64,000 bases of DNA from the NCBI GenBank assembly GCA_963783255.1, contig CAWAMP010000011.1, positions 96,257-160,256 on the forward strand, in the 5' to 3' direction. The translations under genes and the position numbers were made by a program. Source of the DNA: an uncultured Acidobacteriota bacterium (GTDB lineage: Bacteria; Acidobacteriota; Vicinamibacteria; Vicinamibacterales; Fen-181). The notes beneath the pieces are model-generated. The model did no database searches. It worked only from the letters and a program-made list of their open reading frames with translations, and was not told the DNA's origin. Numbering within the stretch: the stretch's first letter is position 1; every line of letters starts with the position of its first letter. Below are positions 8,241 through 30,968 of this stretch, in pieces.

Positions 8241-9623
<1,383 letters not shown>

Positions 9624-9629
<6 letters not shown>

Positions 9630-12282: not shown

Positions 12283-12322
12283 CGGCAGGCCAGGCGCGAT
12301 TCTACCACCTTCACGACGGGCG

Positions 12323-14134: not shown

Positions 14135-14138
14135 TGCG

Positions 14139-15788: not shown

Positions 15789-15823
15789 TCGTGTCGCTCC
15801 TCGAGGGGGAATCGGTCCGACCG

Positions 15824-15882
15824 CTGTGGCGCGGGGCTTCCCTGGCCTGAGCGGAGTCGAAGGCAGCCCCGCCGGCCACAGG
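15824..15882. repeat. composite REP-like hairpin
   Basis: ctgtggcgcggggct ... agccccgccggccacag arms around a loop containing cctgagcggagtcgaagg. A related word, ctgagcgcggtcgaagg, occurs at about 58042-58065. Confidence 0.7.
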
Positions 15883-15944
15883 CGGTGAAGCGTTGATTGT
15901 AGTCGAGAGCGAGACGGGTCAGACAACGGGTGCCCGGACGCCGT

Positions 15945-16274
15945 TTATCTTGCGGCCGTTCTCCGTTGCCGTTTCGGTCTGCGAGGCTCCGCGGCTTTCG
16001 ACGTGTCTTCGGCGTCGAGCGGCGGTCGATCCAGGATGCCGAAGAGTCTGGCGGCGTACCGGCGGGATTCCTTCGTGGCATCGTCAATCGTCCGCAGCAG
16101 GTTCATCGTGGTGTTGTTGAAGTCGATGTCCTGGCGGTCGAGATGCTTGTCGATGCCGTCGAGCCGCTGGTCCATGCCGTCGAGTCGCTTGTCAATGCCA
16201 CCGAGCCGCCGGTCCACGCCGTCGAACCGCTGGTCGAGGTAGGCCTTCAGTTCCTGGCTCTCCTGAGGGGTCAT
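15945..16274 (-). CDS. small coiled-coil protein with five tandem 7-aa repeats
   Basis: DQRFDGV DRRLGGI DKRLDGM DQRLDGI DKHLDRQ, i.e. 21-nt tandem repeats in the DNA. 109 aa with a basic tail. Confidence 0.5.
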   Translation of the reverse strand: MTPQESQELKAYLDQRFDGVDRRLGGIDKRLDGMDQRLDGIDKHLDRQDIDFNNTTMNLLRTIDDATKESRRYAARLFGILDRPPLDAEDTSKAAEPRRPKRQRRTAAR

Positions 16275-16557
16275 CCCGCGTTACCTCCAGCAGTCTCTGC
16301 TGCACACGTCACGCCAGACGTCGATTTCGGTCTATTTTGGCCGAATTCTCGCAAGCCAGCCTTCCGCGGCCGGCGCTATCGTCGCAATTACCGCGCAGGC
16401 TTCGTTGCGCCCGATGTGGAGTTTCTGCGCGCTCCAAGCTTCGGCCACCTGGCGGGCGTGCCTGCTCCGCAGGACGACGACGATAGCGTCGTCGGAGGTG
16501 GGACGCAAGAGAGAATCTTCCGTATGGGGACGGTGCTTCCGGCCGGGTGGGCGCGGG

Positions 16558-17712
16558 TCAGCCGGACGGCGCGGATGAGGTTGTGAGCGAGGTCGAGATC
16601 CCCGCCCAGCCAGAGTCGTGCCACTCGGCAAGCGCCTGCTCGACGCGCTCGGCTGCTCTCCCGTCCCACATGGGAATGTCCTGGCCGCCCGGCCACCGCC
16701 CCGACACCGCGTCGTCGAACGCCCGCCGGATCAGGCCGGCGTCGTTGCCAACCAGGCGGCTCGTGCCGAGTTCGAGGGTGATGGGCCGCTCCGTCGTCGT
16801 GCGAAGGGTCACGCAAGGGACGCGCAACACGCTTGTTTCCTCCTGCATGCCGCCGGAGTCGGTGAGGACGACGCGGGCCGCGCTCATCAGTGACAGGTTC
16901 TCGCAGTAGGGAAGAGGGTCGACAATGCGCAGGCGGGCGTCGGTGTTCGACGTCCACCGAATGCCCGCCCGGTCGGCTGCCGCTCTGGTGCGAGGATGCA
17001 TTGGGAAGACGAGGGGCAACCGCTCGGCCAATTCCCTGAACAACGCCAGCAGTGTTCCGAGCGTCTGCGGGTCGTCGACGTTCGATGGCCGATGGAGGGT
17101 AATCAGGCCGAACTCCCGGTGCCTGAGCGACATCGCGGCAGCGGTGTCCAGTTCGCCGGCCTTCTGCAACTCGGCGAACAGAGTGTCCACCATCACGTTT
17201 CCGACCAGCCGCACCTTGCGCGGCGCAACACCTTCGCGTTCGAGATTCCGGACGCCGCTCGGCTCGGACACCAGCAGCAAGCCGGCGACAGCGTCAGTGA
17301 GAATCCGGTTGATTTCCTCCGGCATCGTCCGGTCGAAGCTGCGCAGGCCCGCCTCCACGTGGCACACCGGAATGCCCAGCTTCACGGCAGCAAGGGCGCA
17401 CGCGATCGTGGAATTCACATCCCCGAACACGACGACCGCATCCGGACGCGTCTCGAGCAGGTGCGCCTCGTATCGCTCGAGGATGCGGGCGGTCTGGCTG
17501 GCGTGCGACCCGGAACCGACCTCCAGATGCGCGCTGGGCTTGGGGATCCCAAGGTCCTGGAAGAAGACCTCGTTCATGGCCGGGTCGTAGTGCTGACCCG
17601 TATGGATGATTCGAGGCTCGAGGCGGCCGGCAGCACGGATGGCGCGTTCGACCGGCGCCAGTTTCATGAAGTTCGGGCGGGCGCCGGCGACGAGGTCGAT
17701 GAGTGGTGGCAT
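16558..17712 (-). CDS. wecB: UDP-N-acetylglucosamine 2-epimerase (non-hydrolysing)
   Basis: Start at ATG 17710-17712. MPPLIDLVAGARPNFMKLAPV...IIHTGQHYD...VVVFGDVNSTIACALAAVKLGIPVCHVEAGLRSFDRTMPEEINR...DSGGMQEE, a full-length WecB pattern. Confidence 0.9.
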   Translation of the reverse strand: MPPLIDLVAGARPNFMKLAPVERAIRAAGRLEPRIIHTGQHYDPAMNEVFFQDLGIPKPSAHLEVGSGSHASQTARILERYEAHLLETRPDAVVVFGDVNSTIACALAAVKLGIPVCHVEAGLRSFDRTMPEEINRILTDAVAGLLLVSEPSGVRNLEREGVAPRKVRLVGNVMVDTLFAELQKAGELDTAAAMSLRHREFGLITLHRPSNVDDPQTLGTLLALFRELAERLPLVFPMHPRTRAAADRAGIRWTSNTDARLRIVDPLPYCENLSLMSAARVVLTDSGGMQEETSVLRVPCVTLRTTTERPITLELGTSRLVGNDAGLIRRAFDDAVSGRWPGGQDIPMWDGRAAERVEQALAEWHDSGWAGISTSLTTSSAPSG

Positions 17713-17894
17713 ATGGGGTCCGCTGTCGGCGCAGGCCTCGCCGCGATCATACAGCCAGTTCGAGCCGCCCGCTGCATGTCTGCTCAGGGTCGCGCGCTTG
17801 CGTTGATCTGAATGAAGTTGGAGACAAAAGGCTCCGTCGGGGAAGTCTTTTAAGACAAGAAGCTCAGAATATCGCCTGTTTTTGGGCAAAGCCC

Positions 17895-17909
17895 TGGTAT
17901 CACGCTTGC
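17895..17909 (+). promoter_or_regulatory. sigma-54-like -24/-12 promoter upstream of the HAF-repeat gene
   Basis: CTGGTATcacgcTTGCTc. The GG and GC dinucleotides have canonical spacing. It lies 76 nt before ATG 17985. Confidence 0.4.
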
Positions 17910-17984
17910 TCTGGGGGAGTCCGAGGGCCTCCCGGCCGGGCCCGAGCGGATGGTCCGGATTTCGGGACTCTAATCGGAGGAGCT

Positions 17985-19157
17985 ATGAGGAAGCGGCTGT
18001 TGATTCTCGTCGGGGCTGGGCTGCTGGTGCTGAGCGGCACGCGGGCGTCGTGGGCGCAGAAGGACGGCGTCTGGGACCTCGGCACGTACCCCGGCGGGAC
18101 CTGGGCCGACGCAAGGGGCATCAACAACGCCGGCGTCGTCGTTGGCTACGGGGACATCGCGAGCGGCTTCGACCGCGGAGTCGGAACCTCTCTGCGCGGC
18201 GGAGCGGGAGACTGGTTCGATGTCGGCACGCTGGGCGGAGACGATGGGTTCCCGGGGACGATATGCATGGGAGTGGCCGACACGGGGATGATCGTGGGCC
18301 TCTCGTTCCTGCCTGGGAACACGGCCGTCCACGCATTCGCGTGGACCACCAGGTCGGGCATGGCAGACCTCGGCACATTGAAGCCCACGGACACCGACAG
18401 CTACGCGTACAGCGCGAACAAGGCAGGGACCCTGATCGTCGGGTGGAGCGGCAGCGGGTGGTGGCCCGAGAACAGCCGGCCTGTCGTGTGGACCTCGTCC
18501 ACGGCGGCGTCGGAGCGGGAGCACGATGGCGATGGCGGGGTTGGCGCAGTCCGGACATGGACGATCAGCGAACTCGACACCACCGGCTTCCGGGGCCTGA
18601 CCAACTGGTCCGCGACCGCGGTCAACAACCGAGGGCAGATTGTCGGCTTCGGCCTGAGGAACGGTGTCTACGTCCCCGTGATCTGGAACCCCGGCCCGGA
18701 CGGCAAGGGGTGGAAGATCGCTGCGCTGCCTCTCTCGAATGCGTATCTCCAGGCGTGGCCGAACGACATCAACGAAGAGGGCCAGATCGTCGGGGGCGTC
18801 GCGTCCGTGACGTGGGACACGTTCCGCGCGGCGTTGTGGCAGCCCACGCCGGGCCGGACGAAGACCTGGTCCCTCGGCCTGCTGCCGTCCCTGAGCGCGG
18901 CGCACGTGTTCTGCGAGGCCATGGGCATCAACGGCCGCGGCGACATTGTCGGCTACGCCTGGGATGCCAACTACGTGGGCCCTGCGGCTCGCTGGTCCAG
19001 CAAGGATGCGCGGTTCGTCCAGTCGCTCGAGGAACTTGGGTTTCCCGCTGCGGACTGGAGCTGGGCGGTGAAGGTGAACGACGCGGGCGTCGCCGCGGGC
19101 GGATACGGCGCTGCGGATGACGGGTGGATGCGAATGGCCGCGATCCGCCTCCGCTAG
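17985..19157 (+). CDS. secreted HAF-family extracellular repeat protein
   Basis: GGAGGAG RBS and signal peptide MRKRLLILVGAGLLVLSGTRASWAQ. Repeated ...INNAGVVVGY..., HAFAWT...GMADLGTL, ...NNRGQIVGF..., ...INGRGDIVGYA units. No PEP-CTERM tail seen. Confidence 0.7.
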   Translation: MRKRLLILVGAGLLVLSGTRASWAQKDGVWDLGTYPGGTWADARGINNAGVVVGYGDIASGFDRGVGTSLRGGAGDWFDVGTLGGDDGFPGTICMGVADTGMIVGLSFLPGNTAVHAFAWTTRSGMADLGTLKPTDTDSYAYSANKAGTLIVGWSGSGWWPENSRPVVWTSSTAASEREHDGDGGVGAVRTWTISELDTTGFRGLTNWSATAVNNRGQIVGFGLRNGVYVPVIWNPGPDGKGWKIAALPLSNAYLQAWPNDINEEGQIVGGVASVTWDTFRAALWQPTPGRTKTWSLGLLPSLSAAHVFCEAMGINGRGDIVGYAWDANYVGPAARWSSKDARFVQSLEELGFPAADWSWAVKVNDAGVAAGGYGAADDGWMRMAAIRLR

Positions 19158-19198
19158 GCTGACGACGAGCGCTGGGGCGACGATCCGTTCGTGACGCG

Positions 19199-19225
19199 AA
19201 AGGGCCACCACCGCGGTGGCCCTTC
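19199..19225 (+). terminator. hairpin after the HAF-repeat gene
   Basis: aagggccacc accgc ggtggccctt, a 10-bp stem, located 42 nt after the stop. No U-tract. Confidence 0.35.
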
Positions 19226-19260
19226 GCGCGTACGGGCCGCCCCAGGTGCTAGAATCCCGC

Positions 19261-21108
19261 ATGCCAATCCGCGACCTTGCACGCCAGGCGAGGGTGCGCG
19301 GGCGCCTTCTGGCGCGCGCGTTCCTGCTGGTCTGGGAGAGCGCGCCCGGCTGGACCGGCGCGAGCATGGCGCTGGTCGCCGCGCAGGGACTGCTGCCGCT
19401 GGCGTCGCTTTATCTGCTGAAGCTGCTGGTGGACGCGCTGACGGCAGCGTTCGGCGCATCGCCGGCCGCATCGGCAGGAGCCGTGTCCGGCGCCGCGACG
19501 CCGGTGCTGATCGTCCTGTCGTTCGCCGCGGGCGTGGCGGTCCTCGAAGTCCTGTCTCGCACGCTCGCCTCCTACGTCGCTGAGGCCCAGACCCAGACCG
19601 TCATCGACCATCTTGCCGACATCGTCCACGCCCGGTCCGCCGCGCTCGACCTGAGCTACTTCGAGGACCCGCACTACTACGACATGCTGCACCGCGCGCA
19701 GGAAGAGGCGGGCTGGCGGCCGACCTACCTGGTCGGCAGCATGCTGCAGGCGGCGCAGGCGGCGCTCTCGCTTGTCGGCCTCGCCGGCCTGCTGCTCTCG
19801 TTCAACTGGGCGGTCGCCCTGGTCCTGTTCCTGGCGTCGATCCCGAGCGCCCTGGTGCGGCTCCGCTTCGCAGGCCGCCTCTACGCCTGGCATCGGACCC
19901 GTACCGCGGACGAGCGCCTGTCGTGGTACCACCACTCGCTGCTCACAGACGGCCAGTACGCCAAGGAAGTGCGGATGCTCGACCTCGCGCCAATGCTGGC
20001 GCGCCGCTTCCGCGAGCTGCGCGCGCGGCTTCGCGGCGAGCGGCTCGGCATCGCGCGCGGGCGCGTGACGGCCGACTCGATCGCCCAGGGCGGCGCGACG
20101 CTCGCCACGTTCGCCACCTACGGCGTCCTCGCCGTCGGCACCGTGCGCGGGGCTATCACGGTCGGCGGCTTCGTCATGTACTACCAGGCGTTCCAACGGG
20201 GACAAGGCTGGCTGCGCGACGTCCTCAATAACGTCGCGGACCTTTACGAGGACAGCCTGTTCCTCGGCGACCTGTTCGACTTCCTCGATTTGCAGCCGAA
20301 GACGGCAGGCGGCGCATCGCTTGCGCCGCGCCAGGCGCCGGCCGCAGGCGCGCCGCGCGAAGGCATCGTCTTCGACCACGTCAGCTACACGTATCCCGGG
20401 AGCACGCGCAAGGCGCTGGACGACGTGAGCTTCGTCATCCCGCCGGGACAGCACGCGGCCCTTGTCGGCGAGAACGGCTCCGGCAAGACGACCATCGTCA
20501 AGCTCCTGTGCCGGCTCTACGACCCGACCGAGGGGCGGATCACGATCGACGGAGTGGATCTTCGGGAGTGCGACCCGTCAGCGCTGCGACGGCGCGTCAC
20601 CGTGATGTTCCAGGACTACGCACGATACCAGCTCACCGCGCGCGAGAACATCGGGTTCGGGGACGTGGAGGCGATGGCCGACGACGGGCGCGTGGCGGCG
20701 GCGGCGGGGCGGGCGGGTGCCGACTCGGCAATCGAGGCGCTTCCGAGGCGCTACGACACGACCCTCGGCAGGTGGTTCGAAGGGGGGGTGGAGCTGAGCA
20801 CCGGCGACTGGCAGCGCGTGGCCCTCGCGCGAGCGTTCCTGCGCGACGCGGAGATCGTCGTCCTGGACGAGCCGACGAGCGCGCTCGACGCGAAAGTGGA
20901 GCACGAGGTGTTCGCCCGGCTCCGCGAGCTGGCGAGCGATCGGACCGCCGTGTTCATCAGCCACCGCATGTCAACGGCGCGTCTGGCGGACTGCATCTAC
21001 GTGCTGGCCCACGGGAAGATCGTGGAGCAGGGGAGCCACGAGGAACTCGACGCGCGCGGCGGGACCTACGCCACGCTGTTCAGATTGCAGGCTGAGAGTT
21101 ATCGGTAG
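19261..21108 (+). CDS. ABC exporter (fused permease + ATPase), candidate lasso-peptide exporter (D)
   Basis: Start taken at ATG 19261 (MPIRDL...). Six-TM N-terminal half. Walker A GENGSGKTT, signature LSTGDWQRVALARA, Walker B VVLDEPTSALD. Confidence 0.85.
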   Translation: MPIRDLARQARVRGRLLARAFLLVWESAPGWTGASMALVAAQGLLPLASLYLLKLLVDALTAAFGASPAASAGAVSGAATPVLIVLSFAAGVAVLEVLSRTLASYVAEAQTQTVIDHLADIVHARSAALDLSYFEDPHYYDMLHRAQEEAGWRPTYLVGSMLQAAQAALSLVGLAGLLLSFNWAVALVLFLASIPSALVRLRFAGRLYAWHRTRTADERLSWYHHSLLTDGQYAKEVRMLDLAPMLARRFRELRARLRGERLGIARGRVTADSIAQGGATLATFATYGVLAVGTVRGAITVGGFVMYYQAFQRGQGWLRDVLNNVADLYEDSLFLGDLFDFLDLQPKTAGGASLAPRQAPAAGAPREGIVFDHVSYTYPGSTRKALDDVSFVIPPGQHAALVGENGSGKTTIVKLLCRLYDPTEGRITIDGVDLRECDPSALRRRVTVMFQDYARYQLTARENIGFGDVEAMADDGRVAAAAGRAGADSAIEALPRRYDTTLGRWFEGGVELSTGDWQRVALARAFLRDAEIVVLDEPTSALDAKVEHEVFARLRELASDRTAVFISHRMSTARLADCIYVLAHGKIVEQGSHEELDARGGTYATLFRLQAESYR

Positions 21109-21145
21109 GGCGAGGCCTTAGTCTTGCCTGGCACTTATTTCGACT

Positions 21146-21298
21146 TCTTTCCCCTCCGGGCTGCGGCGATCGGGTTGTCCGGCTTCCCGCTGCGATAGCC
21201 CTGGGTCAGGTCGGTGACGCTTCCGTAGACGACGAGCTTCGGGGCGCGATACACCTTCCGGGGCGTTGGCCGGCCGCTGGATTCCATCCTGCCCTCCC
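21146..21298 (-). CDS. lasso-peptide precursor A1 (50 aa)
   Basis: Hand translation gives MESSGRPTPRKVYRAPKLVVYGSVTDLTQ / GYRSGKPDNPIAAARRGKKSK. GGAGGGGAGGG precedes the ATG. The leader motif YxAPxLVxYGSVTxLTQG is shared with the second precursor. Thr is at -2, the core starts with Gly and Asp is at core position 8. Confidence 0.75.
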
Positions 21299-21457: not shown

Positions 21458-21545
21458 CGTGTCGATGTGGCGCGGGCGTGTCGGTGTGGCGCGGGCGTGT
21501 CGGTGTGGCGCGTGTCGGTGTCGCGCGGGGCTTCAGCCCCGCGGG
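21458..21545. repeat. REP-like array: 3-4 tandem ~19-nt units ending in the canonical palindrome
   Basis: cgtgtcgatgtggcgcggg cgtgtcggtgtggcgcggg cgtgtcggtgtggcg cgtgtcggtgtcgcgcggggcttcagccccgc, with the hairpin at 21525-21542. Confidence 0.85.
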
Positions 21546-22513
21546 AGGCCCCGCCTGACGTCCGCCAGTATTGCTTCCGTCACCGCGCCGAGATCGGTGG
21601 CGTCATCGCGGACGGTCAGTTGGCGGACCGGGACGCGCGCGGCGAGGCGGGCGAAGACGTCGAGCGCGCGCGTCCGGAGCTCGGCGTCGAGGACGTAGTT
21701 CATGTAGGTGCGGGAGACGAGCGCCATCAGGGCCTCGTGCCCCTTCAGGTCATCGATCGCGGCGGGCCGGTCGAGATCGGGTCTGCGTTCGTGCAGCACA
21801 TAGATCGCGCCGAGGGGTACCGGCCCGGCCGGGAAGCGAGTCCCGTCGGCCGTCAGTTCGAGGTGGCGCTTGTCGGTGGTGTCGCCGCCGTGCGGCAGCG
21901 CGTCCTCCGTGCCGTAGAGCGCGCGCACCGCGTCGGGCGCCAGTCGCACGACGTTGTGCCCTGGAAGCACGTGGTACTCGCCATCCGACTTGAAATCCAG
22001 CGCCAGCACATCGTCCGTCAGCGCGGCGAATCCGCGCCGGACGAACGCCGCCGCAGTCGTGGACTTCCCCGCGCCGGAGTGCCCGAGGAACGCCACGGCA
22101 CGGCCGTCGATGACGACGGCGCTGGCGTGGAGGCAGGGCGTGCCGCGCAGGTGCAGCACGAAGCCGATGATGGGCCCGAACAGGCAGGTCAGGATCTCGC
22201 CAATCGGCAGGTTCGCGGGCCAGCGGGCCCAGACCCGCAAGCCCGCCCGGTCGACCAGGAACTCCGACGCGTCCCAGTAGCGCACGCGGTAGAACTCCTG
22301 GCCGCACTGCGACACGACCAGGGTCGGTTGGCCCGCCTCGTCCGTCTCCGCGTCCGTGTAGCACACGCGCTCCGGCGCCACGAGCAGCTCCGCAGGCCAC
22401 GCGGACCCGCCGAGCAGCGACACTTCGAGATCGACGCTCTCCGAACGCGGCTCACCGCACGGTTGGTCGCGATCGATGCGGACGCGCAGGCCGAGCACGT
22501 CAACGCAGGACAT
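21533..22513 (-). CDS. HPr-kinase-like (HprK C-terminal domain) protein 1
   Basis: Start at ATG 22511-22513 (MSCVDVLGLRVRI...). P-loop LHASAVVIDGRAVAFLGHSGAGKSTTAAAF. The ORF-track extension to 22756 is not protein-like. Confidence 0.75.
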   Translation of the reverse strand: MSCVDVLGLRVRIDRDQPCGEPRSESVDLEVSLLGGSAWPAELLVAPERVCYTDAETDEAGQPTLVVSQCGQEFYRVRYWDASEFLVDRAGLRVWARWPANLPIGEILTCLFGPIIGFVLHLRGTPCLHASAVVIDGRAVAFLGHSGAGKSTTAAAFVRRGFAALTDDVLALDFKSDGEYHVLPGHNVVRLAPDAVRALYGTEDALPHGGDTTDKRHLELTADGTRFPAGPVPLGAIYVLHERRPDLDRPAAIDDLKGHEALMALVSRTYMNYVLDAELRTRALDVFARLAARVPVRQLTVRDDATDLGAVTEAILADVRRGLPRG

Positions 22514-22819
22514 GATCTTGCCCACCCCCAGTCTCGAGAGCTGGCGGCAACGACCGCGCCTGGAGGGTGGCGCAGGCGACCCCTCCCCTTGTGAAGAACC
22601 GCTGCACCGCCTCACCGTCTCTTCGTCTTGCGGTTGGGGCACACGCCGGGCCTGTCGCCCCCATCCCCAACCGCGCCATTGTTGGCCGGCTGGCGGTTCT
22701 CGGGACTCTGCCGATGGCGAATGTCCACGGCTCGCTTGGCGCCACCCTCCAGACACGGCCGGGCATCGAGGGCGAGACTGGGGATCGGCAAGAAGAGATG
22801 ATTGGGGTTCGCGGCGGAT

Positions 22820-23299
22820 TCAATGCGCGGCCCACGATTCCGGGAGGTCGTCTCCCTCGAAGGGCGAGAAGCGTTCGCCGACGTCCGGGTCGTCGTTCAG
22901 GACGAGGCCGCCGAGTTCCACCCAGGCGTGCGCCTCCAGGTGGCCGGCCGCCGTGCGGACGCCGATGCGCAGCGCGCTCTCGATGCCGCGGCGCCGCAGG
23001 ATCCACCAGAGGGCGACGGACCGCGTGAGGCAGTTCGGCCGGCCGGGAATGCGGAAGGCGGCGGCGTTCACCAGCCGGCCAGCCTCGCGCGCGCGCTGTG
23101 CGTCGGGCACTCCCGTGCCTTCGCCGATGACGGGGTGGCGGGAGAAGAACCGGCAGACGCGCCGCAGTCCGAAGATGCGGATGGCAGCCGCTACCGAGGG
23201 CAGGAGCGCAACGAGATGGAGAACGAGGCGCCGGTCCGGCGCGGGCAGGTCCCGCCACTTGCGCCAGGCCGACTGCCGGCGCGCGTCGGCTTCGCTCAT
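22820..23299 (-). CDS. lasso-peptide leader protease B2 (transglutaminase-like)
   Basis: Catalytic Cys context RPNCLTRSVALWWILRRRGI and His context GHLEAHAWVELGG. 159 aa. Confidence 0.85.
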   Translation of the reverse strand: MSEADARRQSAWRKWRDLPAPDRRLVLHLVALLPSVAAAIRIFGLRRVCRFFSRHPVIGEGTGVPDAQRAREAGRLVNAAAFRIPGRPNCLTRSVALWWILRRRGIESALRIGVRTAAGHLEAHAWVELGGLVLNDDPDVGERFSPFEGDDLPESWAAH

Positions 23300-24195
23300 G
23301 GACGACCGCTGACGCCGACGTCTGCGAGGACCGCTTCCCGCACGCGGTCGATCTGCTCAAAGTCGTGCGGGTAGGACAGGCGCCGCATCAGCCCGGTGGC
23401 GGCGAGAGCGGTCAGCCGCGTGAAGTCGGCGGCGAGTTGTTCACGATCCGGCTCGCCAATCCGGTAGGTGCAGTCCATCAGGTCGCGAAATCCGTCGTTC
23501 CAGTCAGGCGCGACAATCTCGATCGACGAGCCGGGGTCCTGCGGCAGGAGGCGGTAGATTCTGGCAAGCGGAACGTCTTCGTTCGGCGGCGGCGCGCCGA
23601 ACGACATTTGCCGCTTCTCTTCATCCCGCGGGATCGATCTTCCCGACTCCGCAGGAATGCCGAGTCGCGCGAGGGCCCTCTCCCGCAGCCTCAGGTCCGG
23701 CAGGCCGGGGTGGCAGCGAACACGCCCCTCGTGGTTCACCAGCGGGAGGCAGTCGTCGGCGAGAAGCGTGTAGCCGCGTCGGCCGAAGCTGGCCGCGAGC
23801 GTGGATTTTCCGGCGCCGCTCGTGCCAATGAAGCCCACCGCCAGCGAGGACGCGACGAGCACCGCGCTCGCGTGCAGGACGACCTGCGACAGGCTCAGGC
23901 AGAGCGGAAACGTTTCGTTGAGGAAGGAGTAGCGTGTGTAGTCCGGCGTCGCCGCAGAGCCCGGGTAGCAGACGATCGCCCTGGTGGCCGGGATGATCTC
24001 GAACTCCGTCAGCTCCGAGTTCTGCACCCAGCAGACCGACTTGTCCAGCTCGTACTGCAGAACGGCCGGCCGCGTGTGGCAGACGTCGAACGTGAAGTCC
24101 GGGGATTCGGCTGCCACGGGAGCAAGACCTGGGAACTCCAGGTTCGTCGCCACCGTGCATCCGAGGATGCGGTAGCAGAAGCTTCCGTTCCGCAT
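23296..24195 (-). CDS. HPr-kinase-like protein 2
   Basis: LHASAVLVASSLAVGFIGTSGAGKSTLAASF. Same fold pattern as 21533-22513 but strongly diverged. It overlaps B2 by 4 nt. Confidence 0.75.
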   Translation of the reverse strand: MRNGSFCYRILGCTVATNLEFPGLAPVAAESPDFTFDVCHTRPAVLQYELDKSVCWVQNSELTEFEIIPATRAIVCYPGSAATPDYTRYSFLNETFPLCLSLSQVVLHASAVLVASSLAVGFIGTSGAGKSTLAASFGRRGYTLLADDCLPLVNHEGRVRCHPGLPDLRLRERALARLGIPAESGRSIPRDEEKRQMSFGAPPPNEDVPLARIYRLLPQDPGSSIEIVAPDWNDGFRDLMDCTYRIGEPDREQLAADFTRLTALAATGLMRRLSYPHDFEQIDRVREAVLADVGVSGRP

Positions 24196-24196
24196 C

Positions 24197-25339
24197 CTAT
24201 CGCGAGTACCTGGTTACCACTTCCGCCACGAATTCGGCTGCTGCTGCCCGGGTGGGAAACAGATCGGCATGGGCGCGGCCGAGTTCCTCTTCGATCTCCG
24301 CGACCGTCTTCCGGCCGTCGCACAGGTTCACGACCGTGCGCCGTGCCGCGCCCCACGGGTTGAGCGTCGGCACGTGGTCCGGCCTCGTCCTGACCATGTC
24401 CTCGCGGCACAGCAGCATGCCCTTGAACGTGGAGTGCGCGAACTGGTGGGCTGGAACCGTCGCGCCTGCGGGGAAGACCCTGACGTCCCAGGAGATCATG
24501 GTGTCGCGCGAGAAGAGCGTCATGTGCACGAAGACGCGGTCGCCGGGCCCCACGCCCACCGAATGCCGGATCGGCAGGAAGACGTTCGCGCGGTTGATCC
24601 GCCGATCCGAGAGCGGGGAGTTGGTCATCGTCACGCTCTCGGACATCTGCGCCGAGAACCACCCGCCGATCCCGTCGAGGCGGCCCGGCCTCGAGACAGT
24701 CGTCCAGGCCTCGAGTTGGATGTGCGCGCCCGTGTATTCGCGGATGTCCACCGAGCCAGCCGTCGCCGACTCGCCCAGCAGATCCTCGGCGCGCAGCTTC
24801 GCGCCGTAGCCGGTGTTCGAGGCGATGTCGAACGCCGGGCGGAAGTCGAACCCCGCGCGCGGCTGTAACCAGAAGTCGATCTGAGGCCGCATCTCGTCGG
24901 ACTCGATCGGCGCGAGGTGGAAGTCGATCCTCCCCGGGATCATCCGGCCGTCCGGCTTCATCAGGCGACGCCGGGCGTCGGCGAAGTACTCGAGGACGCC
25001 CGCGTCGAACCCGAACCGGCCGATCTGGTCGGCGACGACGACGTCCACCTTCTCGGGGAGATCCAGCCGGGTGGACAGTCCCTTGACGAAGACCACCCTG
25101 TCCTGAAGCCCGTTGGCCGCGCTGATCTCCCGCGCGAGGCCGACAAACGCCGTCTCCTCCACCGAGTAGACGCGCTTCGCGCCCGCGCGGCAGGCGAGCA
25201 TACCGAGAATGCCGGTGCCGCAGCCAAGGTCGAGGACGAGGTCGCCAGGCCTGACGACTTCGCCGATGGCGCGCTCGAACGACTCGAGGCGCGGGATGTC
25301 CGCCAGGTACTGGCGGTGCTCGTCAACAACCAGGGACAC
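24197..25339 (-). CDS. PRMT-like class I SAM methyltransferase fused to a PqqD/RRE-like C-terminal domain
   Basis: SAM motif I VLDLGCGTGILGMLACRAGAKRVYSVE and post-I/II VDVVVADQIG, with an overall PRMT-like beta-barrel half. C-terminus AARRTVVNLCDGRKTVAEIEEELGRAHADLF...AAAEFVAEVV resembles PqqD helices. GTG start. Confidence 0.65.
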   Translation of the reverse strand: MSLVVDEHRQYLADIPRLESFERAIGEVVRPGDLVLDLGCGTGILGMLACRAGAKRVYSVEETAFVGLAREISAANGLQDRVVFVKGLSTRLDLPEKVDVVVADQIGRFGFDAGVLEYFADARRRLMKPDGRMIPGRIDFHLAPIESDEMRPQIDFWLQPRAGFDFRPAFDIASNTGYGAKLRAEDLLGESATAGSVDIREYTGAHIQLEAWTTVSRPGRLDGIGGWFSAQMSESVTMTNSPLSDRRINRANVFLPIRHSVGVGPGDRVFVHMTLFSRDTMISWDVRVFPAGATVPAHQFAHSTFKGMLLCREDMVRTRPDHVPTLNPWGAARRTVVNLCDGRKTVAEIEEELGRAHADLFPTRAAAAEFVAEVVTRYSR

Positions 25340-25389
25340 TGAACGCTGTTTTCAGGGGAGGGACGAGTGGACTGTCGGAAGTTCTGAGT

Positions 25390-25539
25390 CTACAGGCAGT
25401 GCTTGCTCATGCCGGGCTGGCCGCCATCGGCCCCGCTGCCGGAGCCGCCCTGAGTCAGCTTGGTGACTGAGCCGTAGGCAACCAGCCGGGGCGCGGCGTA
25501 GGGCTTCTTCGGGGCGGATATCGTGGGGGTCGCGTTCAC
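25390..25539 (-). CDS. lasso-peptide precursor A2 (49 aa)
   Basis: Hand translation gives MNATPTISAPKKPYAAPRLVAYGSVTKLTQ / GGSGSGADGGQPGMSKHCL. GTG start with AGGAG 9 nt upstream and an in-frame TGA just before it. Same leader motif as A1, with core Gly1 and Asp8. Confidence 0.75.
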   Translation of the reverse strand: MNATPTISAPKKPYAAPRLVAYGSVTKLTQGGSGSGADGGQPGMSKHCL

Positions 25540-25651
25540 GCAGCTAATCTCCTGCTGTCATTATACCATCCGCGGCCGGACGTCCTTGTGGCGCCGGCGG
25601 TTGCCGCATGCTACCCACAATGGAGGATCTCGTCCAGTCTGGTCGAGGCCT

Positions 25652-27517
25652 TTATTGCGCAAGCAGCCATGTTTCGACCGCGTACGCTGACCACACAGCC
25701 CAAGCCCCTCCCGGGTTGCCGCCCGAACGGTAGCCCGAGAGGCCGTTCCTGCACATCTCGGCCAGGCGGCCTGCGTTCACCCATCCCCGGTCCGCGATGC
25801 GCATCCGTTCGAACAGCCTGGGCCCACCAAGAGCACGCAGCGGCTCCCAGATCAGGTGCGAGAACTCCGCCTTCGTCCGCCGTCCCAGGACCGAGTCGGG
25901 GAGCAGCCCCTTCATGGCGTGGCGCAGCAGGAACTTCCGCTCGCCGCCGCGCCTGTGGCACTCCTCCGGGACAGCGAACGCGAACTCGATGACGCGGCGG
26001 TCGAACAGCGGGTGGCGCTGGTCCACACTCTGCCGGGCAGAAGCCCGGCTGCACATCTCCCAGCTGAGCGGGAGCCAGCCGTTCTCGAGCGCGTAGAATC
26101 TGTTGCGCTGGGCGTTCGACGGGAACGTGCGACCCGCGTATATCGCGTCGCAGCGGTCGTCCAGGGTCGTGCGGGCGCGAAACTCCCTTGTCAGCCACGG
26201 CCACCGGTTCCGGCGTCGGTCTCTGGCTCCGAGAAGCCGCGAGAAGGGCCAGAAGGCCTGCGCCGCCCCTCGAAGGAGGAGCCGGAATGCCGCGTTTCGG
26301 CCGAGGTCGCCCACGTCGTGCATGAATTCCGACAAGGCGACGCCGAGACGGAACCTTCCGAGCATGTCCGGATAGGGGTTGTCCGCGCCGGAGAACCAGT
26401 CGTCTCCCCCCGAGCCCGTCAGGATCACCCGGAATCCGCGCTCGTGCTGCAGGCCCTCCCGCTGGGCCACGGCGAGGCTGACGGGATTGGCCGTCAGGTA
26501 CCGGGACTCGCGAACTTCGCGGGCGAACTCTTCGACCTCTAGTTGCGGGACCGACGCGTTGTTCCGGAGGTTCCACATCCGGACGACGTCATCGATGTAG
26601 GCGCTCTCGTCGCACTTCATCCCAGGGAAGACCGAGGAGAAGGTCTCGAACCCCCACGCCGCCGCGTGCCCTTCGCGGAAGAGGTGCTGCGCCATGCCGA
26701 CGACGGACGACGAGTCGAGGCCGCCGCTGAGCTCCGCGCCAATCGGGCCGTTGCTGCGCATGCGGCAGCGGACCGCATCGCGAAACAGCTCGAAGAAGCG
26801 CTCCGCGTATTCCTGAGGGTTCCCGAACCGGATCTGCCTGTCGAGGTCGATGTCCCAGTAGCGCTGGCAGCGAAGCCCGTCGGCGGTGACGATGAGGAAG
26901 TGGGCGGGCGGAAGGCGGCGGACGCCCTGGTATAGAGTTTCGTCGCGGCTCGTCACTTCGACCGCGAGGAACTCGGCGGCCAAGCCCTCATTCGGCGTCG
27001 TGTCGATCGACGGAGCCTCCAGGATTTGAGCGACCTCGGAACCGAAGACGAACTGCGAGGGGTCGTGGTGGTAGTAGAAGGGTCTGCAGCCCAGAACGTC
27101 ACGGGCGCAGTAGAGCTGTCTGTCCTTCGGGTCCCAGATGGCGAAGGCGAAGTCGCCCAGCAGGCGGGCGGCGCAGTCGTTCTTCCAGAGGAAGTACGCG
27201 CACAGGACCAGTTCGGCGTCGGTGTCGTCGCGGGGCTGGACGCCTTTCGCGCTGAGGTCGCGCCGCAGTTCCTCGCGGTTGTCGATGCGGCCGTCGAAGA
27301 CCAGGCGGAAGCGACCGGTCGAGTCCGACAGCGGCTGGTTCTCGGCGGCAGCTTCTGGCGTCGTATGGAACGCGCCGTAGCCCAGGGCCACATTCCCGCC
27401 CATCCATGCCGCGGTGCCATCCGGGCCCCACGGGCGCATGAGGAGCATGACCCGGTCGAAGACGTCCCGGTCGATCTCCCTGCCGTCGAAGTTCCAGATG
27501 CCTGCGATCCCGCTCAT
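25652..27517 (-). CDS. lasso-peptide cyclase C (asparagine-synthetase-like)
   Basis: N-terminal MSGIAGIWNFDG (Ntn amidotransferase-like). PP-loop GAELSGGLDSSSVVGMA. 621 aa. Confidence 0.85.
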   Translation of the reverse strand: MSGIAGIWNFDGREIDRDVFDRVMLLMRPWGPDGTAAWMGGNVALGYGAFHTTPEAAAENQPLSDSTGRFRLVFDGRIDNREELRRDLSAKGVQPRDDTDAELVLCAYFLWKNDCAARLLGDFAFAIWDPKDRQLYCARDVLGCRPFYYHHDPSQFVFGSEVAQILEAPSIDTTPNEGLAAEFLAVEVTSRDETLYQGVRRLPPAHFLIVTADGLRCQRYWDIDLDRQIRFGNPQEYAERFFELFRDAVRCRMRSNGPIGAELSGGLDSSSVVGMAQHLFREGHAAAWGFETFSSVFPGMKCDESAYIDDVVRMWNLRNNASVPQLEVEEFAREVRESRYLTANPVSLAVAQREGLQHERGFRVILTGSGGDDWFSGADNPYPDMLGRFRLGVALSEFMHDVGDLGRNAAFRLLLRGAAQAFWPFSRLLGARDRRRNRWPWLTREFRARTTLDDRCDAIYAGRTFPSNAQRNRFYALENGWLPLSWEMCSRASARQSVDQRHPLFDRRVIEFAFAVPEECHRRGGERKFLLRHAMKGLLPDSVLGRRTKAEFSHLIWEPLRALGGPRLFERMRIADRGWVNAGRLAEMCRNGLSGYRSGGNPGGAWAVWSAYAVETWLLAQ

Positions 27518-27612: not shown

Positions 27613-27894
27613 TCACTGAGAGACCGTGAGCAGCCCGTGCTCCACCAGCTCGCCGATCAGCTTCTCCATGTCGGTGCGCAGTTGCGCCGGCTCGACGTCG
27701 TACTCGGCGGCCAGGCTGTCGTAGGCGGCCTGTATATTGCGGGCGTCCGTGAGGAGCGTCCACATCCTCGTCCCGACCTCGTCGAGGCCGAAGTACTTCT
27801 CGGTCTTGAGGTTGAGGACGACCGACTCGCCCTCGAGGCTACGGACCAAAACGCCGTCGGGCACGGACACGCGCGCTGTGAACGGTATGTTCAT
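27613..27894 (-). CDS. PqqD-family RiPP recognition element (lasso B1)
   Basis: 93 aa. ...VLVRSLEGESVVLNLKTEKYFGLDEVGTRMWTLLTDARNIQAAYDSLAAEYDVEPAQLRTDMEKLIGELVEHGLL, the typical PqqD pattern. Confidence 0.85.
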   Translation of the reverse strand: MNIPFTARVSVPDGVLVRSLEGESVVLNLKTEKYFGLDEVGTRMWTLLTDARNIQAAYDSLAAEYDVEPAQLRTDMEKLIGELVEHGLLTVSQ

Positions 27895-27900
27895 TGGTGT

Positions 27901-27960
27901 GTGTGGCGGTCGTCGCCGTGGCGCGGGGCCTCGCTGTGGCGCGGGGCTTCAGCCCCGCGT
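27901..27960. repeat. REP-like element
   Basis: gtgtggcggtcgtcgccgtggcgcggggcctcgctgtggc followed by the palindrome gcggggcttcagccccgc at 27941-27958. Confidence 0.85.
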
Positions 27961-29049
27961 GATGATCTTCCCCAACACCCTGAACGGCCGTATGACATGC
28001 AGCAGCGGCTTCAGGCGCGGCGGCAGTGGCAGGAAATCGTTGTCCGTCTGGTTCGCCTCAAGCGCCCGCCGCCACACATATCGGGCCTTGTCGCGGAGCG
28101 TGCCCGCCATCCGCAGCTGCATCATGGCGCCAGCCGGCCGGCCTGCGACGTCACCGTCCTCGGTGAAGAGGCTGCGTTCGATCTGCCGAGCGACGCTCAC
28201 TGCAATCGTGTCGCGCCTGGCCTCCGCGATCACATCGGGCGGCACCGGCGCCGAAAGCAGATCGCCGGCAAGAAGCAGCGCAACGTGGAACATCCGCCGG
28301 GTTCGACGGTCGGCGAGCAGCGCGTGCCAGCCAATCGGGGCCACCCGCACGAGGTTGGCGACGTCGCAGATCCACCCTAGCGACGTCCAGCAGTGCCGCG
28401 CCCCGTGCAGGGCGAGACAGGCAAACAGATCGTCAGCGCCAAACGTCGGCAGCGCGCCGCCGGCCATGTCTAGCCGGTGGACACGCGTCAGCGCCGCATC
28501 CGTGTCGACCGATGGCAGGTAGTGTGGTGAGACGGCCCAGTGGAGGTCCACGTCACAACCGGCCGGTGTCGCCAGACCGATTTCGCAATTGCCGCTCAGG
28601 TCTGCAGCACCTGGGGCACCCTTCTGGACACACCCGTTCGCAATCAGAACCGAGATCGCTCGGGTTCTGTCGCCCGGCCGAACCAGGATGTCCAGGTCGC
28701 AGAACTCTCGGAGTGCGAGGTCGCCGTAGGCCCACGCCGCGAGTGTCGGCCCCTTGTAGGCGATGGCGGGAACGTTCTCGGCCTCCAGCCAGCCCATGAC
28801 CGCTTTCAATTCGGCGGTCATCATCATGTTGCGGGCGGCATTCGCGAGGAATGCCTTGCGGAGATCTTCAGCGACCTCTGCCGGGATCGCGTCCGGGGGG
28901 TGCTGCCTCAGGCGCGAGTAGAGCAGCGGCAGCAGGCCGTGTCGGGCGGCCTGGCCCTTGACCGCTTCCCAGTCCGTCACCGCCTCGGCCGCCCGGCGCA
29001 ACGCCGCGGCATCCGCGCCGACGCGAGCCGCCTGGATCAGGATGTCCAC
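27949..29049 (-). CDS. uncharacterised nucleotidyltransferase family protein (NTP_transf_5-like)
   Basis: Start set at GTG 29047-29049, the first start codon after the upstream gene's stop. HGLLPLLY...AYKGPTLAAWAYGDLALREFCDLDILV...DVDLHW matches the family often seen next to lasso genes. Confidence 0.65.
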   Translation of the reverse strand: MDILIQAARVGADAAALRRAAEAVTDWEAVKGQAARHGLLPLLYSRLRQHPPDAIPAEVAEDLRKAFLANAARNMMMTAELKAVMGWLEAENVPAIAYKGPTLAAWAYGDLALREFCDLDILVRPGDRTRAISVLIANGCVQKGAPGAADLSGNCEIGLATPAGCDVDLHWAVSPHYLPSVDTDAALTRVHRLDMAGGALPTFGADDLFACLALHGARHCWTSLGWICDVANLVRVAPIGWHALLADRRTRRMFHVALLLAGDLLSAPVPPDVIAEARRDTIAVSVARQIERSLFTEDGDVAGRPAGAMMQLRMAGTLRDKARYVWRRALEANQTDNDFLPLPPRLKPLLHVIRPFRVLGKIITRG

Positions 29050-29065
29050 AAGCGGACGACCAGTC

Positions 29066-30968
29066 CTATGCCGACCGTGCTTCGGCCGGCCGCTGCACGA
29101 GGACCGGCTCCGCCGCCAGATCACCGTCCGGGCGAAGGGCCCCGAGAGGGTCCCTGACCTCTTCGAACCGGATTTCCATTCTGACCAGCCTCGCACCCGC
29201 CCGCGTACAAGCCTCCCGCGCCAGCGCAACCGCAGATTCGGGGATCTTGCGTGTCGAAATGACCACCGCGCCGACCCGGTTCGAGCGGACGCAGGCCTCG
29301 AGGTTGTTGACGTTCCCGACTATGGGCACGCCGTTCACGGTCTTCCCGACCCGCAGTGGGTCATCGTCGATGAACCCGACCGCGTGCAGATCCACGTGCC
29401 GGTTCGACAGCATCTCCCGCAGCGTGCTGGCGCCTCCCTGGCCGGCCCCATAGATGAGTGCGGGTACGCCGCCCTTCACCGCGCGCTCGCGGCTCGCATC
29501 CAGAATGCGATAGGACATCCGGGACCCGAGCGCGAGCCCCATTGCCACCAGCGCGTAGATCAGGAAGAGCGACATCGCGGCCGGCTGCTGCAGAACCACA
29601 TTCACGCCAACAAACGCAAGGAACGACGCGGCGACGATTGCGGCGCAAATGCGCACGCTGTCGTAGACGCTGGCGAGGCGCCAGGATCCGCGGTAGACGC
29701 GCAGCAGCCAGAGGATCAGGACCGTCGTCGGAATCAGCGTGGCCGTCATGGCGGTTTGCAGTGCGCGGTACGACCTCAGCGTCCAGTCGTCGTGTTTCAG
29801 CCCGATCGCCGCGAACACCGCGATGCCGACAAACAGGATGTCGATGAAGACGACGAAGATCGAACGCCTGAGGACGGGCGTGTCGTACAGCCGCAGGACC
29901 ACGCCGGAACGAATGACCGCAAACTCCTCATAGCCGAGTCGGCCGACGCCCACGAAGGCGGCCAGTAAAAGGCCGGCCAACAGGAGGCCGGCGCGTTCGG
30001 CCGTAAGGAACACCGAGACGAGGCCAGCGGCCGCGAGACAGAGGCCGGCGGCGTAGAGTACCAGAACGGCCCGTCGCTGGTCGAGTCCGAGGTCAAGCAG
30101 GCGATGATGCACGTGCTCCCGGTCTGCAGTGAAGATGCGGCCCCTCCCATGCCAACCGGCGGCGCCGATCGCCCGCCGCACGATCGACAGCAGTGTGTCG
30201 GCGACCGGCACGCCGAACACGATGATGGGAAGGAGTGTGGCGAAACCCGCGGACACGGTCGAGCCGCCGCGCAGCGCAAGGCAGGCCAGGGTGAAGCCAA
30301 TGGCCGTCGCGCCCGTGTCTCCCAGGAAGCTCGACGCTGGATGGAAGTTGTAGGGGAGGAAGCCGGCCAGCGCGCCGGCGAGAATCATCGCGGCGACGGC
30401 GATTCCCGGCTGGTGGACGAGCAAGAATACCGCGACGAGGCTGCCGGCAGAGATGAATGCCAGGCCGGCGGAAAGGCCGTCCAGTCCGTCCACCAGGTTG
30501 AAGGCGTTGGTGACGCCGATCAACCACATGACCGAGATCGGCGCGGCCCACATGCCGATATGCACCGTGTAGCCCAAGACGTGCACGTCGGGGTTCAGGC
30601 TCACGCCGAGCGCCACGGCGACGATTGCACCGGCGACGTGGCCCGCAAACTTGGGACCCGCTGGCAGGCGCCTGACGTCGTCGACGAACGAGACGACGAC
30701 GATGGGGATGAGCCCGAGGGCCAGCCCGAACCAGAGGGAGTCTGCCTTGAACACGGAGGTGGTGGCCGACACGAACGCGAAGACCAAGAATCGCAGCAAC
30801 CATGACGGCCAGGCCCCCGAGACGCGGGGTCGGTGTGGCGTGGATCTTCCGCGCCGTGGGGCGATCGACAGCCCCGAGCCGCAGCGCCAGCCGACGGGCG
30901 AGGGGCGTCAGCAGCCAACTAAGGACTGCTGCGCCGATACCTGGCAGGACGAGAAACAGCATCGGCAT
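29066..30968 (-). CDS. WecA/MraY-like polyprenyl-phosphate sugar-1-phosphate transferase fused to a CapD/WbpM-type N-terminal membrane + Rossmann module; apparent frameshift near 30783-30800
   Basis: ORF 30093-30968 gives the N-terminus MPMLFLVLPGIGAAVLSWLLTPLARRLALRLGAVDRPTARKIHATPTPRLGGLAVMVAA. ORF 29066-30799 then continues with VDDVRRL...NAFNLVDGLDGLSAG...FLGDTGATAIGF. After that come 4-5 TM helices and ALIYGAGQGGASTLREML...FIDDDP...GVPIVG. Confidence 0.75.

Follow-up and report, generated by a model that had tools for sequence, protein, structure and literature searches.

A2, a Predicted Lasso-Peptide Precursor Gene Beside a PRMT-Fold Methyltransferase Gene in an Uncultured Acidobacteriota Bacterium

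Introduction

The closest described counterparts of the locus analyzed here are the paeninodin-type phosphorylated lasso peptides and several methylated lasso peptides. The subject of the analysis is A2, a short open reading frame (ORF) for a putative precursor of a peptide that is made ribosomally and then modified post-translationally (RiPP). It is found in a stretch of 64,000 nucleotides (contig CAWAMP010000011.1, positions 96,257 to 160,256 of the forward strand) from the assembly GCA_963783255.1 of an uncultured Acidobacteriota bacterium. This whole stretch is referred to as the window, and all coordinates follow its numbering. A2 lies between the genes for an asparagine-synthetase-like cyclase (C) and a methyltransferase with the fold of protein arginine methyltransferases (PRMTs), and the same cluster encodes a second precursor with a related leader, A1.

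Paeninodin-type lasso peptides are known from Paenibacillus, Bacillus, and Sphingobium, and include pseudomycoidin with its nucleotidyltransferase. Their clusters resemble the A2 cluster in the split B1/B2 proteins, the asparagine-synthetase-like C protein, the HprK-like kinase(s), the nucleoside triphosphate (NTP) transferase, and the ABC exporter. The YxxPxL leader with Thr at position -2 is also shared, and the clusters can lie in polysaccharide loci (PMC8498205, PMC13381572). Two HprK-like kinases are encoded in the window, both with weak but consistent matches. However, the paeninodin-type kinases act on a C-terminal Ser, while A2 ends with K-H-C-L. Lacking a C-terminal Ser, A2 does not belong to the paeninodin-type substrates, although it may work in the same manner at another Ser. 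No PRMT-fold methyltransferase is described for the paeninodin type, and the hosts belong to different phyla, those of the clusters reported here being Acidobacteriota and other soil phyla.

The HprK-like kinase BsfK from Bradymonadales phosphorylates Ser3 of the lasso core BsfA together with B1 (PMC10368454). This combination of a kinase and B1 acting on a Ser inside the core is comparable to A2, whose predicted ring has Ser3 and Ser5. The BsfA system differs in having Ile at -2, where A2 has Thr, and in having neither a methyltransferase nor a Cys-Leu end.

Methylated lasso peptides include lassomycin and the StspM product, which carry a C-terminal methyl ester, lihuanodin and cellulonodin-2, in which Asp methylation by an enzyme of the protein isoaspartate methyltransferase (PIMT) type leads to aspartimide, and longipeptin with S-methyl-Met; the substrate of StspM is the linear precursor (PMC8498205, PMC9266682, PMC11285071). 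Reviews and papers to mid-2026 contain only these three kinds of lasso methylation: C-terminal O-methyl, Asp-methyl/aspartimide, and the S-methyl-Met of longipeptin (PMC8498205, PMC9266682, PMC11285071, PMC13352647). In these clusters, as in the A2 cluster, a gene for a methyltransferase dependent on S-adenosylmethionine (SAM) adjoins the precursor gene. The enzymes are a small-molecule-type O-methyltransferase, a PIMT, and LopH, in contrast to the PRMT fold in the window. The A2 cluster is neither lassomycin-like nor PIMT-like because the methyltransferase family differs. In open-access papers, nothing relevant was found on a PRMT/PrmA-type methyltransferase in lasso clusters.

The Precursor Gene A2

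The ORF from 25539 to 25390 on the minus strand is considered to be a functional lasso-peptide precursor gene with a probability of about 0.86. This assessment is based on sequence comparison and on analogy with characterized pathways; binding by B1, cleavage by B2, closure of a Gly1-Asp8 ring, threading, modification, and export are all predicted steps. By every criterion that can be examined in a sequence, A2 is a lasso precursor, of class II and without a disulfide. It is a short ORF beside B1, B2, and C in one minus-strand cluster. The leader (residues 1-30) contains Y14-A-A-P17-R-L19, which corresponds to the Y-x-x-P-x-L motif bound by the RiPP recognition element (RRE). Y14 and P17 never vary among 73 sequences of the A2 family, and at least 90% of these keep L19. 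The leader ends with T29-Q30 directly before G31, placing Thr at -2, and at least 90% of family members likewise keep T29. The core (residues 31-49, GGSGSGADGGQPGMSKHCL) has Gly1 and Asp8, that is, a small residue at position 1 and an acidic residue in the range of 7-9.

The NCBIfam model NF033521 (lasso_leader_L3; cutoff 19) recognizes both A2 (26.0 bits) and A1 (24.8 bits), and distant members of the A2 family also match it above the cutoff. This model describes a 20-residue leader only, and the G-S-G-x-D-G-G...C-L core is covered by no curated NCBIfam model. Scores for NF033528 (lasso_cyano) stay under the cutoff (26.3 vs 33).

In a motif scan of the window in all six frames, A2 and A1 were the only two occurrences of the leader pattern. 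The shared leader blocks, PRKVYRAPKLVVYGSVTDLTQG in A2 and PKKPYAAPRLVAYGSVTKLTQG in A1, align with a Smith-Waterman score of 84. Shuffled A2/A1 pairs score 22.6±4.6 with a maximum of 55, and none of 20,000 reaches 84 (Gumbel p ~2e-8; z ~13). When 3,307 segments from the six frames of the window are ranked against A2, A1 comes first, and the runner-up scores 50. The first-pass annotation had proposed that A2 is a RiPP precursor whose leader is related to that of A1, and had named an alignment with shuffled controls as one comparison that could refute this. The relationship holds against such controls. The proposal is supported by this similarity, the NF033521 match, the presence of B1, B2, and C, and homologues conserved in both sequence and position.

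The first-pass description of the gene itself was also accurate: A2 is a 49-codon ORF between the cyclase gene (27517-25652) and the methyltransferase gene (25339-24197), to which its strand, previously unstated, can be added. A2 sits 112 nt downstream of C, and the methyltransferase gene begins 50 nt past A2. The ORF listing and translation of the window give the product V/M-NATPTISAPKKPYAAPRLVAYGSVTKLTQGGSGSGADGGQPGMSKHCL, followed by the stop codon. The start codon GTG (25539-25537) is preceded by the Shine-Dalgarno sequence AGGAG (25549-25553, minus strand) with a 9-nt spacer, and GGGAG is kept at the equivalent place in the orthologues from the loci L002 and L003. The upstream in-frame TGA reported earlier (25560-25558) is accompanied by an in-frame TAA (25563-25561). 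Because of these two stop codons, GTG is the sole canonical start of A2.

The window is 66.7% GC and contains 136 ORFs of at least 40 aa within 17 kb; an ORF alone therefore has little meaning. The GC content of A2 by codon position is 0.60/0.60/0.90, and the third-position GC content (GC3) of the flanking enzyme genes is 0.81-0.90. Plus-strand ORFs overlapping A2 have a non-coding GC pattern by codon position. The exact A2 peptide is already present as a called gene in a public protein collection, and where its nearest relatives at JGI have been given any name, it is "hypothetical protein".

The sequence TGgTATAAT (25560-25568, minus strand) overlaps the in-frame TAA and TGA and resembles an extended -10 element. 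TATAAT is found at equal distance in L002 and L003, where the spacer has otherwise diverged. The conserved TGnTATAAT is a possible promoter element. A strict scan for sigma-70 promoters and terminators detected no full promoter and no terminator near A2. The absence of a terminator between A2 and the methyltransferase gene makes it probable that the two are co-transcribed. The 3' spacer of A2 folds no better than shuffled controls, and no Rfam family was found on either strand of 24900-26000.

The A2 Family

A profile built from A2 and seven close homologues was compared with 1.84 billion representative proteins (E<=1e-3), and 1,087 representative proteins were found. Core statistics were obtained from the best 150 of these matches. 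The leader motif is present in 149 of them. Asp or Glu occupies core position 8 in 131 of the 149, position 9 in 12, and position 7 in 3. A Cys-Leu end, with exactly one Cys each, characterizes 84 of the best 150; these are designated as CL cores. The single Cys noted in the A2 core at first pass can be specified as part of this Cys-Leu C-terminus.

All 84 CL cores contain Ser or Thr within the ring. The best-conserved hydroxyl is at core position 5 (Ser/Thr in 59 of 84), where A2 has Ser5 in addition to its Ser3. Met is present between positions -8 and -3 in 74 of the 84. The consensus of CL cores is x-G-x-G-S-G-x-D-G-G...M-x-M-M-x-C-L, and A2 agrees with it at every conserved position.

Using the methyltransferase as a bait, 41 genome loci were collected from about six phyla, with 47-61% identity. 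They span Acidobacteriota, Methylomirabilota/Rokubacteria, Nitrospira, Actinomycetota, Burkholderiales, and Deltaproteobacteria/Myxococcales. Their typical gene order is B1-B2-C-A-MT-kinase (A, precursor; MT, methyltransferase). In most of them, a precursor with the leader KKPYxxPxLxEYGSxxKLTQ is encoded directly upstream of the methyltransferase. Because A2-type precursors accompany the methyltransferase in most loci and A1 is found only in close relatives, A2 represents the conserved substrate type and A1 a lineage-specific addition. From these gene arrangements, A2, not A1, is taken as the conserved substrate of the B1-B2-C-A-MT-kinase module. The earlier view of two paralogous precursors thus stands as to the kinship of the leaders, but A2 is a widely conserved type and not a side copy of A1.

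A published description of this methyltransferase-linked subfamily was not found in the open-access literature, although earlier bioinformatic mentions are possible. Judging from sequence comparison, A2 is a member of a large and widespread subfamily of lasso precursors that has apparently not been studied. The peptides of this subfamily usually end with Cys-Leu, and the precursor genes lie beside that of an enzyme similar to arginine methyltransferases.

Ten relatives of A2, mostly from JGI metagenomes, are 52-69% identical over the alignment. The nearest genomes are metagenome-assembled genomes (MAGs) of Acidobacteriota, and the full architecture including A1 is common to them; the methyltransferase of L003 is 89% identical. 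Their A2 orthologues keep GTG, GGGAG, and TGnTATAAT/TATAAT at equal spacing. Over codons 11-32, read by hand, L002 differs from A2 by five synonymous changes and one non-synonymous change, and L003 by seven and three, respectively.

The orthologues in L002 (~10100-10150) and L003 (~9900-9950) look frameshifted near the 3' end, and the shifted frame reads ...MTMKCL or ...MTMMCL before the stop codon. These frameshifts in long-read MAGs are probably assembly indels and not pseudogenes; P0007, a public protein of 71 aa, results from an error of this kind. Upstream of the A2 orthologue, L002 (9802-9950) and L003 (9568-9720) have a second, tandem A2-like precursor (VTIKPHEPEPKKPY...), which the window does not have. 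Core residue 1 varies among these tandem paralogues (His, Asn, Thr, Arg, Gly).

The PRMT-Fold Methyltransferase

The methyltransferase (24197-25339, minus strand) consists of 380 aa. Its sequence matches PRMT2, PRMT6, PRMT1, and CARM1 with E-values of ~1e-24 as a single sequence and ~1e-40 as a profile. The AlphaFold model has a mean predicted local distance difference test (pLDDT) score of 90.7 and TM scores of 0.67-0.72 to PRMT crystal structures. Sequence and predicted structure together permit the confident assignment of the enzyme as a genuine PRMT-fold protein. All of its top PDB matches, in sequence and in fold, are PRMTs, and it does not group with O-methyltransferases of the StspM/LasF type.

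In common with eukaryotic type I PRMTs (PRMT1/2/6 and CARM1), the enzyme has the Rossmann domain, the beta-barrel fold, and the SAM motifs. Of the acidic double-E loop, the enzyme retains Asp/Glu112 and an invariant Asp104, which takes the place of the first Glu. The THW loop is changed to I-N-R, in which Ile248 and Arg250 are invariant. The intact pair of double-E and THW loops, which holds the guanidinium of arginine in PRMTs, is not seen in this enzyme. About 80 residues at the C-terminus form an additional, conserved helical domain, and many cognate cores contain no Arg. Methylation of arginine or lysine was considered as the general function and rejected, because Arg is absent from 50 of the 84 CL cores and both Arg and Lys are absent from 33.

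Independent metagenome loci were chosen by the leader nonamer YG[ST]VAKLTQ alone, as a degenerate DNA pattern, and an unrelated membrane-protein family was excluded by length. This false-positive family (L049, L054, L059, L064, L082, and others, from freshwater metagenomes) has YGSVAKLTQ followed by ...PPKPKLFSK... and a predicted C-terminal membrane segment. In the selected loci, 60 unique short cores are accompanied by the methyltransferase, and in 58 of them the final eight residues include Cys and/or Met. Three loci (L081, L089, and L127) have an HprK-like kinase directly after the precursor and no methyltransferase, and their cores GTRSRGKETRRRIA, SGGSTIKESGVPRQGKSKK, and KVGNTGARDSPRRPRHQTQV contain neither Met nor Cys. 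The association between the methyltransferase and Cys/Met in the tail has a Fisher p of 2.5e-4, a value based on three methyltransferase-less loci and not corrected for phylogeny. The cores of these three loci are basic, like that of A1 in the window.

A strict coupling of Cys-Leu with the methyltransferase was rejected, since the enzyme also follows Met-rich cores such as ...MMMA, ...RMGM, ...MMRL, and ...HMKP. The pattern weakly points to a sulfur nucleophile, the thiol of Cys or the thioether of Met, as the methyl acceptor. A carboxylate or phosphate acceptor would be just as compatible with the invariant Arg that stands where PRMTs have the THW loop.

The C-terminal domain of the methyltransferase was compared with RREs. 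A weak match to Pfam PqqD (E ~0.1) was obtained in 2 of 20 members, and hhalign against the B1 family of the cluster gave a probability of 0.1%. In the PDB sequence-profile search, no match was found for this domain. When the domain was modeled on its own (pLDDT 82.6), Foldseek yielded nothing below E 0.6; PqqD and a lasso B1 (6jx3_B; TM 0.48-0.50) appeared at E 1-2.4.

Predicted Maturation of A2

By analogy with characterized lasso pathways, B1, a PqqD-type RRE, would bind the A2 leader through Y14-x-x-P17-x-L19, and B2 would cut after Gln30, with Thr29 at -2. The cyclase C would then activate the side chain of Asp8 and join it to the amine of Gly1. The result would be a macrolactam of eight residues through which the 11-residue tail GGQPGMSKHCL is threaded, and the computed monoisotopic mass of this putative 19-mer is 1683.709 Da. 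The corresponding computed values are 1701.720 Da for the linear core and, for the lasso form, 1697.725 Da with a methyl group, 1763.676 Da with a phosphate, and 1777.691 Da with the two together. Kinase 1 may phosphorylate a Ser of the ring, Ser5 or Ser3. The methyltransferase may act on the sulfur-rich tail, at the Cys18 thiol or Met14, or, less likely, on the C-terminal carboxylate. Export would be conducted by the MsbA-like ABC protein. The product of A2 is therefore likely to be a 19-residue lasso peptide with a Gly1-Asp8 ring, probably both phosphorylated and methylated, insofar as the chemistry of related systems applies.

The Gene Cluster and Its Surroundings

The minus-strand cluster begins with a nucleotidyltransferase gene of the NTP_transf_5 family (27949-29229; PF14907, 1.2e-53). 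These coordinates delimit the maximal ORF; the true start is uncertain, and the protein is probably ~366 aa in length. It is followed by B1 (27613-27894), a discrete PqqD-type RRE of 93 aa (PqqD 1.1e-16; lasso PqqD models 1.5e-14, under the strict cutoffs), and by the 621-aa cyclase C (25652-27517), which matches Asn_synthase (8e-42) and GATase_7 and scores 432 bits for the lasso isopeptide cyclase model NF033535 (cutoff 525). Downstream from A2 and the methyltransferase lies HprK-like kinase 1 (23296-24195; 299 aa), with weak P-loop matches to Hpr_kinase_C and HprK_rel_A; its place after the methyltransferase is conserved in nearly all related loci. The start of the B2 leader peptidase (22820-23299; 159 aa) overlaps the stop of kinase 1, and B2 matches Transglut_core3 (PF13471, 3.5e-26) and the lasso B2 model NF033537 (99.2 bits, cutoff 33). 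A longer ORF at 22500-23360 was ruled out as the gene of the B2 region, as its frame is non-coding (GC3 0.63). HprK-like kinase 2 (21533-22513; ~326 aa, start approximate) has weak HprK matches. All of these genes, and A1 (21135-21287), are on the minus strand; the MsbA-like ABC exporter (19216-21108, plus strand; 630 aa) is convergent with the cluster and matches ABC_tran, with MsbA-type models under their equivalog cutoffs.

A1 lies 4.2 kb from A2, and its core is GYRSGKPDNPIAAARRGKKSK. Among the related loci compared, the NTP_transf_5 protein, kinase 2, and A1 are found only in close relatives of the window. A1 ends with ...KKSK and resembles the logic of paeninodin and pseudomycoidin. In the alignment of A1 with nine homologues, three of the ten sequences (P0286, P0289, and P0290) have Asn as residue 8 of a core that contains no acidic residue, and are consequently incapable of forming a lasso isopeptide. 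This suggests that A1 may be a linear peptide modified by the kinase and nucleotidyltransferase in at least some strains, and that it may not always be cyclised. Linear polyphosphorylated peptides (LPPs) occur beside lasso clusters in capsule loci (PMC13381572), a situation echoed by the A1 cores without an acidic residue. By analogy, a division of labor is plausible, in which the methyltransferase and kinase 1 would serve A2, and kinase 2 and the nucleotidyltransferase would serve A1.

Only one discrete PqqD gene is present in the window. Several distant loci (L006, L011, L013, L021, and L040) have a second PqqD-type gene after the kinase, and this arrangement suggests a dedicated RRE for tailoring enzymes there.

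The lasso cluster is embedded in an exopolysaccharide locus (~12300-19400 and 29000-57100). This locus encodes a UDP-sugar dehydrogenase, a UDP-GlcNAc 2-epimerase, GT4/GT1 glycosyltransferases, a heparinase II/III-like protein, a Wzc-like protein (50850-53168), a Wza-like protein (53168-54085), a BBP2_2 porin (54075-55313), and sigma-54 activators (8241-9629 and 56094-57095). The exopolysaccharide context recurs in L002, L044, and L045. Paeninodin-like clusters of Bacilli are placed in capsule loci (PMC13381572), which parallels the locus in the window. A 465-aa ORF (17970-19367, minus strand) with no Pfam/NCBIfam match overlaps a 484-aa ORF (17703-19157, plus strand; GC3 0.81) with a weak DUF3466 match.

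Alternative Interpretations

Several observations weigh against the interpretation of A2 as the precursor of a modified lasso peptide. The A2 core is Gly/Ser-rich and has few bulky residues (Met14, Lys16, and His17) for locking the thread in an 8-residue ring. About 40% of the family has Asn or Thr at core position 1 instead of Gly/Ala/Ser/Cys, which is unusual for lasso substrates. Both C and B1 score under the strict lasso-specific cutoffs of NCBIfam. Concerning the modification, the usual arginine target of the PRMT family is inapplicable to the CL cores that have neither Lys nor Arg. The correlation behind S-methylation includes three negative loci only, the methyltransferase accompanies non-CL cores as well, and the evidence for an RRE in its C-terminal domain is not significant.

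The shortage of plug residues in the core would also agree with a genuine precursor whose mature product is linear or unthreaded, phosphorylated or methylated, as are LPPs. LPPs and the lasso clusters of capsule loci have in common their YxxP leaders, HprK-like kinases, NTP transferases, and MsbA-like exporters (PMC13381572), and the two HprK-like kinases, NTP_transf_5 protein, MsbA-like exporter, and polysaccharide context of the window correspond to the LPP gene set (PMC13381572). Such a product is nevertheless unlikely for A2, given the retention of the acidic residue at core position 8 in 131 of 149 sequences among the best 150 representatives, and the detection of the cyclase next to the precursor in the majority of related loci and of B2 in many. 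In addition, none of the cluster genes was recognized as encoding an SpI-type signal peptidase, and there is one discrete RRE only. The linear form fits A1 better than A2, as three of ten A1-family sequences have no acidic core residue.

A lasso peptide in another register, cleaved after Gly31 so that the ring has seven residues (Gly2-Asp8) and the product 18 (1626.69 Da, computed by hand as the 19-mer value minus one Gly residue), is considered highly unlikely. The constant distance of eight residues from the leader end to Asp/Glu across the family and the spacing of Thr(-2) contradict it, and members with Gly1 and no Gly at position 2 exist, such as GTLT..D and GSAT..D. It would be consistent with the frequent Gly at core position 2 (40 of the 84 CL cores; A2 has Gly at both 1 and 2) and with the often non-canonical residue at position 1 (Asn in 18 and Thr in 15 of 84). 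There is hardly any likelihood that A2 is an ORF arisen by chance in GC-rich intergenic DNA, or that it is a pseudogene decayed from a copy of A1. Short ORFs are abundant at 67% GC, as counted above, and the strict scan gave neither a sigma-70 promoter nor a terminator near A2; however, A2 combines a GC3 of 0.90, a ribosome-binding site, and an NF033521 score above the cutoff with hundreds of homologues conserved in C-terminus and position, and its orthologues differ mostly synonymously in the leader motif. These conservation data already effectively refute this explanation.

Significance of the A2 Family

The lasso-precursor interpretation of A2 remains the preferred one. A2 alone is one more predicted lasso precursor in addition to the thousands already known. 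Its value lies in its family, with the conserved module of precursor, methyltransferase, and kinase, the sulfur-rich Cys-Leu tail, and the dedicated PRMT-fold methyltransferase. Because known lasso methylation is limited to three kinds, this methyltransferase offers a concrete starting point, open to testing, for new RiPP chemistry and for a function of PRMT-like proteins in bacteria. It is possible, though only tentatively proposed, that the peptides with Cys-Leu or Met-rich tails constitute a distinct lasso class, very widespread in soil and freshwater bacteria, in which a PRMT-fold enzyme diverted from arginine methylation would introduce a modification that is new for such peptides: the penultimate Cys would be S-methylated or a tail Met converted to a sulfonium, possibly along with phosphorylation of a ring Ser.

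The layout with two precursors provides a natural test of whether one set of RRE, protease, and cyclase serves two substrates while separate tailoring enzymes discriminate between them, the methyltransferase and kinase 1 on one side and kinase 2 and the nucleotidyltransferase on the other. As these clusters lie within exopolysaccharide loci, the function of the peptides may be linked to the cell envelope or matrix, rather than to classical antibiosis.

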